DNA of 63,938 nt, the filler included, from Bipalium vagum (Eukaryota), in assembly GCA_037834085.1 (NCBI GenBank). It is 4 parts of 4 records of this genome, joined end to end, with 100 filler letters (N's around TTAATTAATTAA, not from the genome) between each part and the next. Parts side by side here need not be neighbours in the genome. Positions count along the whole stretch, not along the records: positions 1 to 16,749 come from JBBMKC010095888.1; 3 more parts are not named here. One strand, 5' to 3'. The notes under the pieces are model-generated. The model was given only the letters and a program-made list of their open reading frames with translations, did no database searches and was not told the origin of the DNA. Shown here one piece after another: positions 2,961 through 8,900 of this stretch. A program made the translations under genes and the position numbers. Position 1 is the stretch's first letter, and each line of letters opens with the position of its first letter.

Positions 2961-5900
2961 TCAACTGTCGAAACCTTCGTTAACCAAATCAATGATAGAT
3001 TGGTAGGCAAACTTTATGTGCTCATCACTGGCAAATTGATAGCATATTGCAAATCTTAGGTATGTAGTACTCGTATCAACGAATTTAGACATAAGTAGGT
3101 GTATTTTCCCTTCTTGCTCAATTCTCTTATAGAGCTCTTCGTTTAGCTCGTTACCTCCCTGAAAAAATAAATAACATATATATTTCACCATATCAGTTAC
3201 CTTCAGTCGAAAACAGACTACACCCAATGTTACTTCTTCAACAATTTCAAATCTTTTATCCATCCTGAGCAAGTCTTCAAATAAATGGGCCAATCTCACG
3301 TGCTGTTGAATACAGAGAACAAAAATTAATTTTAAGTATGACACTAGCTTTATTAATAAATGACTAAAAAATTAAATAAAAAATCATAAAAGTGAAAAAT
3401 TTTTAATTTTATCAGAAAAATAATTATAATATTTATAAGAAGAGAAAGAACCACAAATAAAAACTAAACATTTCTTATGTACTTCTGCAGACCTTCAACT
3501 CCATGAAGTCGTAAGACAAACCATAATTTTAAAGATCTGAATCTGCGACCCAAAGGAATTTGCCAATGCTTAAAAAATAGTTTTAAAGAAAAAAAAGTGT
3601 AACGTCTACTCGTAAATCATTATTTCCAATCAAAATCTCCGTTTTCATATATGGAGCGTCCGTTTGAAAATATTCCATGACAGATCTGCCATGCCTAAAC
3701 CTGATTCACAAAGATATTATCAAAAATCATATTAAAATTTAAAATAAATTAAATAACGAGATTTAATTTGATATATAATTACTTGTTTTAATTGATTATA
3801 CAAAAATAAAATATTCTTTGAATTTGATTTGTTAATTTTAAAGAATAAAATATTTAATTAATATATATTTAAAAAGCACGATAAAATGACAAAAATGAAA
3901 AAATAATTATTTCAGCTTTTTATTAGGCTATTTTTTCTTACAAAGAGCATTTATAATTTTTTGTTTGAATAAATGCAAAAATTTTAATTTTTACTTTATT
4001 ATTGAAGTATAGACCTATTGGTCTATAATACAAATTAATACAAAATTTTAATTTTTTGTTGATTCAATTTTGTATGATTATGATCTCAAAGATATGGAAA
4101 CGCCAAAGTCAACCAAAAAATTTAAAGAGGCAGAATTAAAAGACCTATTAGCCCAGGATGATACGCAAACTCAAAAAAAAACTTGCTACCAAGCTTGATG
4201 TGTCTCAAAAAACCATTTCCAGTCGACTACACAGTGTGGGAAAAATTCAAGTGGAAGGAAAACGGATGCCCTATGAATTGAGTGAAAGGAGTATGGAAAA
4301 ACTAAAAACAACCTGTGAAATTTTAATGGAAAAATTTCCTGAAGGAAATCTTTTCTGCATCGCATTAGTACAAGTTATGAAAAATGGATTTATTTTGATA
4401 ATCAAAAATGCAAGAAATTTCTGGTTGATCAAGGTCAACCATCAACTTCGATTGCCAAGCAAAATATTCATTCGAAGAATGCTTTATTGTATATTTGGTT
4501 AGACCAGAAAGTTGTTGTCTTCTGAGTTATTAAACAATGCTTTAACAACGCCAATCGTTATAAACAACAGCTGATTTAAATGAACATGGCATTGAAGCAG
4601 AAACGACCATAATGGGACAAGAGACATTGAAATGTTATTCTGTCACATTACAATGCTCGACCTCATGTAGCAATTTCAGTCAAGGACTCGTATAAAGAAT
4701 TTGGATAAGTAGTCTTACCTCATCCACCATATTTGCCAGACATGGTGCCATCTGATTTCCATTTATTCAGATCGATGGCACATTGATCTGAATAAACGGC
4801 GTTTTTCAAATATCATGAAATTAAATTTTGGTTCGATGAATGAATTTTGTCTAAAGAAAAAATTTCATTTTCAATGGCATTCTCAAGTTAACAGAAATTT
4901 GGACCAATATTATAGCTAACGATGGGAAATATGTATAATATAATTATGCGTGGTGCCTTTAGAATAAATGCATTTTGTTTTTAAAAAGAAATTCCACAGA
5001 ATTAACTGTTGCACCTAATATAATGCTAGCAATTATCACAGCCGAAAAAAATTCTTGAAGCAGAAGAGTTCAGAATTGGTAAGTTATGGAAATGTAGTAA
5101 CAATAACTGACGTCCCCATACCTCTGGTTAATTATCAGAACTTGATTAAACTTTAAACCATATCCATCGTACAGACCAGACATTGCATCAAAAAATTACA
5201 ATCGGTTTCTCTTTACATAAAACTGTTTGGCTGGTTAAGGTATTAGCTCTGACGGCAGTATTAAAGCGTAGTTCGAAGATTTTTCTTGCTTGAATAAATA
5301 GGAAATTTTACGAAGATGCATTAATGAAATTACCTGAGAGATGACAGCTCATTATTAAACAAAATGGTCAATGTGTTTTTATCTTTTCGTAAAAAACATT
5401 TGTCCTTTTATATTCAAAATATTTTGAAGTAAAAAATAGTAAACTTTTGGGACAGGCTAATATTATGTAAATGAATTAATTCCATTCCTTATTTATTATT
5501 TTTTTTTAACATATAACTTCAGATATATTTATTTTTTTAGTTTGAGAATATTTTAATAATATTTTGATAATAAAGGTTTGGAACTTTAACAATAATTTCT
5601 TGTTCAATTCAATTAAGAATGTCAAAAAATGAACCGAAAAAAAAATTTCTAGAAGTTATCATTTTCTGCTTTCATTTGATAAAGACGGTAGATGAAGACA
5701 ATTTAATGGTCATGGAACCTTATGATGAAATTGCTCCGATCTATAAATCATGTAGAGAATGGTTTAGATGTTTCAAGATGACTGATATCGTTCGGGTCAG
5801 CCGAAAAAATCGAGAGGTGAATTCCAGGTGCTAATCGATAAAGATCCGAGTCGATTATAACATGAGCTAGTGCAATTATTAATTGTTGATAGAACAGCAA

Positions 5901-8900
5901 TTTATTTGCCTTTGTTACCAATGAAAAATATTTATAAAGAAGGAAAGTGGTTGCCATATGAGCTAAACGAAAGAAAGATATAGAGAAGTGAATAAAAATA
6001 TATGAAATTTTGCTTGAAAGGAAAAAAACCAGTATTGAACCAAGAAAATCGATATCTGATTCAGAACAACCGTTCAAGTTGGCACTAAAGTATAATATTC
6101 ACTGCAAGAAAGTATTTGTTTTTATATGATGGAACCAAAGGAGTGTGATATATCATAAATTGTTAAAAGAAAACAAAACCTGAACCGCTGATTTTTACAA
6201 ACAATATTTGATAGATTTAAATAAGACATTGAAAAGTAAGCAACAAGAATAAGCGAACAGACTTGTAAAGTTATCTTACAGTATAATAACGCTTGGTCTT
6301 ATGTTGCCAAGATTTTAAGGGACACTTTGAAAGATCTTGTTTAGTATGCTTACCTCACCCGTCGTATTCAATGGACATTGTTCCAAGTGACGAGCTTTGG
6401 GAGTAAAACTTCAACAATTATGAAGGAATAGAAAAATAGCTCAATCAATTGATCACTTCGAAAGACTAATTGTTTTTTCTTCAAGGATTCTAACAACAGC
6501 CAATCATATGGGGAAAAATAATAGCAAACGATGAAAAATACTTTGATTAGTGTAGGTGTAATTGTTTTTTTTCATAAAAATAGATTTTTATTAGAAAATG
6601 TACCTAATTAATTCACATACTTAATATTTAGTTAAGAATTGATTTTAATTTTTCCTAATTTTTGTTTAATAACTAAAAATTATTATATAGAAATTTTTCT
6701 TATACTTTCTTTTAAAATATTAAATTTTAAACCACATTATAAATGCATCCTCACCATACTATGGAACAATCAAAATTTACAAGGAGCCAATCGTGTGCAT
6801 TAAAGGCGAAAGACATTGCATACTAAATCAATGTTGATAAGAATCATAGAATCTTTTAGAATGTTTTACTTCTATTCCTTTCATTAGATAACGGAATTCT
6901 GGACAAATAAAAGCAGAGCCAGCGTAGGCAGCGTCCACGTGAAGCCATATGTTATACTTCTCACAAACGGGTCCAATCTCGTCCAATTTATCAAAGGCAC
7001 AAGAACCTGGTGTTCCAAGAGTAACTACACACTGAAGAGAAAAAGATATTTTCTGTTAATATTTTATTAATATTTTTTAATTTGGAGAAATGCTCCATAC
7101 TGTCAATGTCATTTTCAGACTTTGTTATAATTTTATGTAAAAGTTTTATTAGTTATAAAAAGCACATTAGAGAAGTGAATATCCTGGATTCTAAAGGATC
7201 TTTAAAAATTATATTTTAAATGTTAAATCGTTTTGTTTTATATTTTAATATAAAAGGTGAATGGTGCCAGTTTTTTTTGTAAAATATTAATTACTTTATT
7301 TTCTGAATTATACTCAGACGAGCTGTTTCTCGTAACACCTGGACCAAATATATCAAAGTAATTACTTACATAGAATGGGATAAGACCATTTTTTATGTCT
7401 TCCTCTATCATTTCTTTTAAGACTGAAGTCGGCATTTGTCTTTTCACGGACTTCACTTTTTTCATTTTAATCATGCTCAACACTCCGGCCCTTTCTACAC
7501 ACAGGTTGGCCTTGGAAAAATTGATTCAATTAAACATTAAAGTATGAATTAATTAAATCCTTACCTGATCTGAATAATATCCCACAAGTTTACCGACTAT
7601 TGAATATTTGTCTTCATCTGGATGGGCCTTTAAAGCTTTACTTCTTGCGGCAAATAAAGCTACTAAAATTGCCTCACTGGAAGAAATCTAAAGGAAAAAT
7701 GAGTTTTAAGATTTTTTTATTTTTGAATGAGAGGGATAATGAAAATTTTAAGTTTTACTGCAAAAATATACTTTTTGTAATATTAAATAATAAAGTAGAG
7801 GTTTTTCTGAAAAGTTAATTAATAAAAATAATTATATTAATAGTAAATTATTTAATAGCTATATAATTATTATATATAAAGTATATAATTATATATGGAA
7901 AAATTATTAATATAATTACAATTTAAGAGATATAATTCCATCTCTTTTTTATGGAATATTATTTATTTATATAATATTATGAAAATAATAAATTAATATG
8001 AAAATGAAAACTTATAAAAATTCTTACATATATTAACCCTCTGCCTTCCTGGGACTGAGAGAGAAAAGCTTCAGGAAGGTGAAGCATTCTAGCAAGCCAA
8101 TCCACCATGGCTATTTCCATTTCAGTTCCAGCAGGGTTGGCCGACTTTAATTAATAAAAATATTTATTTTAACTTGAAAATAATGGAACTTGCCCAACTA
8201 AACCCCATAGACGATATTGCGTCAGAAAGTATATCTCCATAAATGGAGGCATACGAATTTCCAGTTGGAAAATAAGAATGGAAATTTGGATGATGCCAGT
8301 TTGTAATCTAGATCACTGATTATGAATCTTTTGAAAGAAAATTCAATCAAATAAATTGTTTCTTTTAGAAATATTATGGTTTTAATGTTTTATCACATTT
8401 CTGATCTTTACATACCTTGTATATTATAGTTGAATATTAAACTAATTTTATTTTTATAATTAATTTCAAAAAATTTACTCCTGGTATTATAACATTATCA
8501 ATGTCGGCCATAAGATCTTCCCAGTGATCTGGTTTTATTGGAGCTTCAGAGGGTATTAAAGTGTTAATATAACCCGGTTTTACTTGAGGAACTATCTTTC
8601 TTTCTTCAATATTTTCCAAATAGTCTGCTACGAAATCTATCATTTCTTTCGCTCTTTTCTGAAAGATTTTCAAGCCTTTTTCTGGATTGTTCAAGTAATT
8701 GCTTGCTTCTCCGTTTAACATTTGATGATCTTTGTTATCTGAACATAAAAGATTGAAAAAATTAATAATTTTTTATATAATATTTTAAAGATTCATAATT
8801 CTCAAATTAAAAAAACGTGTCACAATTATTAAGTTGGTATGAATTTTATAATTCAGCCAAGTTTTTTCGAAAAATCAGTACAAGTCATAAAAAATATATT

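Follow-up and report, generated by a model that had tools for sequence, protein, structure and literature searches.

The 63,938-nt stretch of Bipalium vagum DNA analysed here (from assembly GCA_037834085.1; called the window, with all positions counted along its whole length) carries a homologue of aromatic amino acid decarboxylase (AADC/DDC) at 8721-2961, read on the minus strand. As judged from sequence, its product is very likely inactive as a canonical decarboxylase, and the gene is likely a selected pseudoenzyme, that is, an intact, fast-evolving duplicate of planarian-type AADC. The initial annotation had placed the gene at 3470..8307 and read it as a dead subunit which had lost the catalytic residues of its own site, had kept those that a subunit donates to its partner, and might pair with an active paralogue. 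The gene proved to be wider than that range, with 11 exons, and the call of a protein without canonical activity was supported by the loss of the lysine, His192 and Thr246 in an otherwise undamaged gene.

The DNA of the window is of animal type and AT-rich (GC 0.20-0.38). The exons (Table 1) splice into a frame of 485 aa devoid of internal stops, and the ten introns, 41-3054 nt long, are all canonical (nine GT-AG and one GC-AG); a check for stop codons, frameshifts and splice-site loss across the 11 exons and 10 introns revealed none. The PF00282 profile (group II decarboxylases dependent on pyridoxal phosphate, PLP) matched nine of the nine gene segments submitted, in profile order and with E-values from 2e-25 to 0.003 (exon 8 was outside this set). 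An acceptor AG at 8740-8739 (junction 8739/8738) is located 17 nt 5′ of the ATG at 8721, and the in-frame residues DNK correspond to the N-terminus of the S. mediterranea protein, which suggests a further short coding exon upstream. No second decarboxylase copy or exon was found elsewhere in the window and exon 7 has clean splice sites, so that a missing or mis-spliced lysine exon was ruled out.

Active-site residues lost and kept

Residues are numbered after human DDC, the numbering being transferred via a 479-aa shark DDC (P0108) whose motifs match the positions given in human papers. The reference set consisted of 118 proteins, obtained from 126 comparison proteins by dropping P0007, P0010, P0011, P0012, P0013, P0019, P0023 and P0123 (fragments, fusions and divergent sequences). 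All 118 reference proteins have K303, H192 and T246, and the lysine is present in 126 of the 126 comparison proteins, whereas the window protein has Asp, Asn and Pro, respectively. The three positions belong to the 74 columns that are fully invariant in the reference set, nine of which are changed in the window protein. These own-site changes had been called in the initial annotation, and the DNA codons bear them out. Contigs of one sequencing run (X1), from which the window itself may derive, match positions 6525-7499 and 2900-4332 with zero differences, spanning the K303D, T246P, Y332 and L353-G354 codons, while the H192N codon is outside the matched records. Sequencing error at K303D or T246P was rejected on this agreement, the run being possibly the source of the window itself.

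In AADC, PLP is held by A148, H192, D271, N300 and H302, with His192 stacking on the ring, and loops 2 and 3 of each site are supplied by the other subunit (PMC8003434). The partner's Tyr332′ relays with His192 and Ser193, Arg347′ and Leu353′ also act in trans (PMC10382914), and Thr246 adjoins His192 and Ser193 (PMC9121088). From these positions, the residues lost in the window protein make up one cluster, namely the centre of the chemistry and the landing place for the partner's tyrosine: the stacking histidine, the serine relay and the threonine of active AADCs are replaced by N192, L193 and P246. According to the account given in the review PMC8003434, the K303A, K303R and H192A variants have no measurable activity. 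Because the lysine is absent, the window protein is predicted to be neither an active AADC nor an aldehyde synthase of the His-to-Asn type. Over the eight cofactor and catalytic residues considered, five are changed, compared to 32 of 186 background columns (p=0.007), that is, such residues have been lost in excess.

The holders of the ring nitrogen and phosphate (Asp271, Asn300 and His302) are retained, and so are W71, Y79, F80, P81, T82, A273, F309 and R447 on the protein's own side. The partner-donated F103, Y332 and L353-G354, stated in the initial annotation to be kept, are indeed encoded in the DNA, and R347 is kept too. Changes on the partner side are I101M, P330A and L333M, the latter two flanking Tyr332, which is retained although two of the three conserved catalytic-loop positions have changed.

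Relatives, selection and a parallel in Sphagnum

The nearest named matches are S. mediterranea S5VQ16 and D. japonica A6P658, next to the unnamed proteins P0002 and P0014, at 61-62% identity. In a 17-row tree the window protein groups with four planarian-type proteins (support 100/99), in agreement with a 34-row quick tree. A schistosome-type placement was rejected by the approximately unbiased (AU) test (p-AU 1e-7), and alternative positions within the planarian clade were not (p-AU 0.06-0.25). S5VQ16 and A6P658 share this clade with the window copy but retain K303, H192 and T246, and the window copy evolves about 2-6 times faster, with an end branch of 0.56 in the 17-row tree versus 0.09-0.30 for its sisters. 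The antibody peptide of the aadc that planarians need for their ovaries (PMC8994625) was found within S5VQ16. The nearest named active gene is therefore this aadc, which is also needed for beta-alanyl-tryptamine (BATT), a niche signal of sexual development (PMC11214079). Translation of the AADCa primer given in the supplementary material of PMC13594227 yields PSSAPE, a stretch absent from S5VQ16 at the corresponding place, so that two or more AADC genes seem to be present in S. mediterranea. As a separate observation, A6P658 (P0003) has an N-terminal EF-hand region together with G354S, S149G and F309L, and it is possibly a chimeric cDNA or a specificity-shifted copy.

The window protein departs from the animal consensus at 21-22 of 148 conserved columns versus 68 of 127 variable ones, and the four active planarian sisters depart at 2-10 of the same 148 near-invariant columns. 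Neutral decay was simulated with AT-biased mutation in 5000 runs, scored on an intact frame and splice set, with or without frameshifts. When carried to 21 changes, the simulation left the gene intact in 3 of the 5000 runs (0/5000 with frameshifts), and when carried to 11 changes in 94 (19 with frameshifts). That an intact gene survived in three runs at most argues that selection likely acted on the fold along most of the branch; a recent release is also possible. In addition, the observed substitutions are milder than neutral ones (mean BLOSUM62 0.0 vs -0.65, P=0.049).

A counterpart was met outside the flatworms. A metagenome motif scan accepting any codon not starting with A at the lysine position gave 14 loci: five (L001, L003, L005, L010 and L014) represent one plant gene with Asp at the lysine position, one is bacterial with a stop, and eight are chance matches. 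Protein searches recovered this gene (P0127, P0135, P0246-P0256) as a lysine-less AADC-like paralogue in seven Sphagnum species, annotated just as hypothetical or as decarboxylase (e.g. S. magellanicum CY35_12G118600 and S. tenellum CAM6079038.1). Of 19 rows read, 13 span the site and all 13 have Asp303, together with Gln192 (H192Q) and Ser148 (A148S), and D271, N300, H302, Y332 and L353-G354 are retained as in the window protein. The Asp303 rows form a clade (SH-aLRT 100) with a Lys/His clade as sister group, in a tree built with 8 of 15 listed Lys/His cluster members. The Asp303 clade differs from the window gene in its plant, independent origin, in keeping T246, in having several broken copies, and in the residue 332 of its active sisters: all eight alignable Asp303 rows have Tyr332 and all eight active sisters have Phe332, Tyr-to-Phe being a known aldehyde-synthase switch (bioRxiv 10.1101/404970). 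Other bryophytes have lysine-bearing copies of the Tyr type, so that Tyr332 may be ancestral in the Sphagnum clade. The intact, full-length S. tenellum model is changed at 11 of 182 plant-invariant columns, and the altered positions that it has in common with the window gene are 111, 148, 192 and 303. The ESM Atlas searched with the moss protein returned ordinary AADC clusters only. The comparison shows that the double change of Lys to Asp and His to an amide recurs and was once carried in an intact gene, which is no proof of a role. Among the other scan loci, a bacterial group II decarboxylase (L009:41-69) has a TAG stop exactly at the codon of the PLP lysine, with the remaining frame open.

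Possible roles of the probably inactive copy

Our tentatively favoured reading is that the duplicate, probably dead on its own, may have been kept as a subunit that pairs with a lysine-bearing AADC and lowers or retunes its output. From known AADC chemistry, a site without Lys303, His192/Ser193 and Thr246 would be unable to run the aldimine cycle and would also be unable to take a proton from the partner's Tyr332. The protein presumably still folds and dimerises. If it is made in the same cells as an active copy of ~62% identity, mixed dimers with one working site would form, and that site would consist of the PLP pocket of the partner and of the Tyr332 loop, F103 and L353-G354 of the window protein. 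The loops donated by the window protein are not the same as those of the partner (I101M, S108N, C111G, P330A and L333M, plus Q350 and P352, which correspond to H/G and Q in the sisters, respectively), and hence the effect in a mixed dimer would be a lowered or retuned amine output and not a mere completion of the site. More speculatively, Asp303, Asn192 and Ser148 could fill the empty cofactor pocket and hold the closed shape without PLP.

Precedents for such an arrangement exist. Mixed dimers of human AADC variants complement (PMC8003434), and in the same fold type the lysine-less SPT1 (LCB1) is the dead partner in a heterodimer with one site, although its family is otherwise homodimeric (PMC6148460). 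As in SPT1, lysine and histidine have been lost from an intact protein, but SPT1 belongs to the alpha-oxoamine synthases, is obligate, with conservation extending from yeast to mammals, and is also without His, Asp and Arg, whereas D271 and R447 are kept in the window protein. The trypanosomatid AdoMetDC prozyme and the dead DHS paralogue likewise are dead paralogues that activate a partner, but they have unrelated folds and act by allosteric relief of autoinhibition, with no shared PLP site. Searches of literature outside the subscription journals found no description of the window gene, the moss clade, K303D or a dopa decarboxylase that has lost its lysine, no paper on planarian AADCb or DjAADC, and no paper covering both Sphagnum and AADC-type enzymes. 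Among papers on pseudoenzymes, those found concern trypanosomatids and ALDH and none AADC, and the accessible parts of PMC4993783 and PMC10252128 make no mention of lysine-less copies.

The residue pattern was compared between the two sides of the site, F309, R447, T245, G354 and some further pocket residues being placed on the side to which we take them to belong. With narrow sets drawn from the literature, five of eight cis residues but none of five trans residues are changed (p=0.044, post hoc). Consensus-likeness relative to the active planarian sisters was also scanned over the protein in 13-residue segments (453 in all, 35 tiles). The tail of loop 3 (345-362), which lines the partner's site and includes R347, L353 and G354, is in the top 2.4% of the 453 segments and is the best of the 35 tiles; over 345-357 it matches the consensus at 12 of 13 positions, compared to 8-10 in the four active sisters (mean 9).

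Several observations weigh against a partner-serving role. At the background rate (32/186), zero changes among five trans residues are expected with P=0.39, and with broad sets the difference between cis (7/21 changed) and trans (1/9) gives p=0.21. Some of the most altered segments fall in loop 2 and its helix (99-123) and in the catalytic loop (323-335), and human P330L retains 0.15% efficiency (PMC9121088), which suggests that the donated loop, where the substitution is Ala, may not work. The active planarian sisters already carry Tyr332, so that there is no Phe-to-Tyr switch to supply and a product switch of the moss style is not directly applicable. As to the moss parallel, the overlap in altered positions is not significant once 303, which was selected by the search, is removed (p=0.07-0.13). 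Moreover, the Sphagnum parallel is decaying: sampled loci have stops and a frameshift, five models are without the N-terminal third, and pN/pS values are 0.35 and 0.53. Neutral simulation to 3-5 changes leaves 9-36% of the runs intact, which is compatible with recent decay. Finally, three word-limited searches and an HMMER scan gave no flatworm relative without the lysine (Lys in 126/126 proteins). In detail, a D303 flatworm orthologue is absent from the best 120 of 7990 matches, among which the window protein itself would rank 7th; the best 120 of 434 matches, with 119 new proteins, comprise 104 with Lys, four with Asp (all Sphagnum-type) and 11 unparsed, again with no lysine-less flatworm protein; and in smaller searches none of 12 matches is lysine-less and two further matches both keep His192. 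This negative is weak, as the searches for relatives yielded only four planarian-type proteins in all.

The asymmetry proposed in the initial annotation thus stood in part. The excess loss of cofactor residues and the consensus-like tail of loop 3 speak for it, but the trans set is kept no better than background, the own-side pocket and D271, N300 and H302 are kept as well, loop 2 and the flanks of the catalytic loop are heavily altered, and the broad sets show no significant difference. A fair statement would be that cofactor chemistry has been lost in a targeted manner within an otherwise kept fold, with mixed evidence for the donated loops. An extended form of the mixed-dimer reading is decidedly doubtful: dead subunits with Asp303 and an amide at 192 would have arisen convergently in flatworms and peat mosses to plug their own pocket and lend the tyrosine loop to an active partner, turning a Phe-type aldehyde synthase into an amine decarboxylase in mosses and tuning the tryptamine-supplying AADC for BATT in planarians.

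Trans retention could also be explained with no partner at all, and the kept own-side pocket fits equally well with a selected, non-catalytic homodimer that would serve as a buffer, store or sensor. Its ligand would be a B6 vitamer (e.g. pyridoxamine phosphate) or an aromatic amino acid or amine, paired through its amine to Asp303. Such a protein, which is possible but rather unlikely, would account for the wholly kept aromatic pocket (W71, Y79, F80, P81, T82, F103 and L353), for the retention of D271, A273, S149, N300 and H302 with losses confined to Schiff-base and proton-transfer residues, and for a Lys-to-Asp change that takes two base changes yet arose both in the window gene and in the Sphagnum clade. 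It would, however, have no need of Tyr332, which is kept here and in all eight alignable Sphagnum rows, and the ring stacking by His192 is lost. We give a similarly low chance to the gene being a redundant copy on which selection is relaxed, or a pseudogene too young to have gained a stop, comparable to C. elegans basl-1 (C05D2.3; PMC514703, PMC6693844). The latter is an intact AADC duplicate, predicted inactive and relaxed (KA/KS 0.148), with no serotonin phenotype, which differs in having lost six residues around Asp271 and not the lysine (PMC514703). It is not known to us to have been assigned a partner role. The long end branch, the changes at 21 of 148 conserved columns against 2-10 in the sisters, the broken Sphagnum counterparts and the lack of an orthologue in searches that yielded only four planarian-type proteins would all fit relaxation, whereas an intact frame with intact splice sites is improbable after so much free change in the neutral simulation, and the changes are milder than neutral (P=0.049) and concentrated on cofactor residues.

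A slow lysine-independent enzyme, holding PLP non-covalently, forming the external aldimine directly and, through Asn192, making aromatic aldehydes or half-transamination products, appears highly improbable. His-to-Asn at 192 is a known aldehyde-synthase switch, as in insect DHPAAS and Eucalyptus PAAS (EgPAAS) (bioRxiv 10.1101/404970, PMC6494836), and D271, N300 and H302 are kept, but those are active PLP enzymes with the lysine, and the window protein has Y79-F80 in place of the F79-Y80 pair of DHPAAS. The inactivity of K303A and K303R (PMC8003434) also argues against it. Asp303 would be expected to repel the phosphate, T246P and S193L would add damage, and the idea is further weakened by precedent: we know of no aldehyde synthase without the PLP lysine.

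Features of the window and significance

Table 1. Exons of the AADC-like gene and its largest intron, with residues in human DDC numbering
Feature	Positions	Strand	Residues and remarks
Exon 1	8479..8738	-	ATG at 8721; gene model
Exon 2	8194..8307	-	loop 1: W71, Y79, F80, P81, T82 kept; H70N, A78S
Exon 2, loop 2 start	8194..8307	-	C100S, I101M; G102, F103 (8202-8200) kept; GC-AG intron next
Exon 3	8028..8144	-	S108N, C111G, L114M, G141R, V143L
Exon 4, phosphate loop	7565..7687	-	S148 (animals A; planarian sisters C); S149 kept
Exon 5	7370..7510	-	H192N (AAC, 7507-7505), S193L, S194C
Exon 6	6870..7031	-	T246P (CCA, 7010-7008); D271, A273 kept
Exon 7	6755..6822	-	K303D (GAT, 6792-6790), P301A; N300, H302, F309 kept
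Intron 7 (3054 nt)	3701..6754	-	decayed mariner/Mos1-type transposon remnants, high copy in sequencing run
Exon 8, catalytic loop	3610..3700	-	Y332 (3651-3649) kept between P330A and L333M; R347 kept
Exon 9, loop-3 tail	3470..3568	-	L353-G354 (3553-3548), R355 kept; nearer animal consensus than active planarian copies
Exon 10	3201..3302	-	L408V
Exon 11	2961..3158	-	with stop codon; R447 kept

A degenerate tRNA-like element is located at 2532-2602 (+), 360 nt past the stop codon of the AADC-like gene; its Rfam score of 26.9 bits is below the cut-off of 29, and ARAGORN was negative. Remnants of decayed mariner/Mos1 and Tc5-type transposases lie at 4050-6500, 48565-48795 and 63360-63650. Exons at 12600-15940 (+) encode ASH/Cep192 D8 Ig-like domains, below the Pfam cut-off, and likely belong to a Cep192/Spd-2-like gene; to our knowledge planarians lack centrosomes, so the state of this gene may be of interest. 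Exons of a casein kinase I gamma (gilgamesh-like) gene lie at ~38400-44600 (-), the assignment being supported at 44331-44603. Exon-like open reading frames at 24691-25077 (+), 54291-55515 (-) and 58796-59071 (+) had zero Pfam matches.

AADC sets the supply of serotonin, dopamine and tryptamine, and the closest named active sister of the window gene is the one required for planarian ovaries and the BATT signal. If the window gene is merely a relaxed duplicate, it would be a second basl-1. The regulatory-subunit idea is plausible, though unproven, for this predicted pseudoenzyme. If true, a naturally dead tuning subunit would represent a new level of regulation for amine synthesis and a natural parallel to the mixed dimers investigated in connection with human AADC deficiency, and the occurrence of the Lys-to-Asp and His-to-amide changes also in a moss suggests that the route to such a protein is repeatable.

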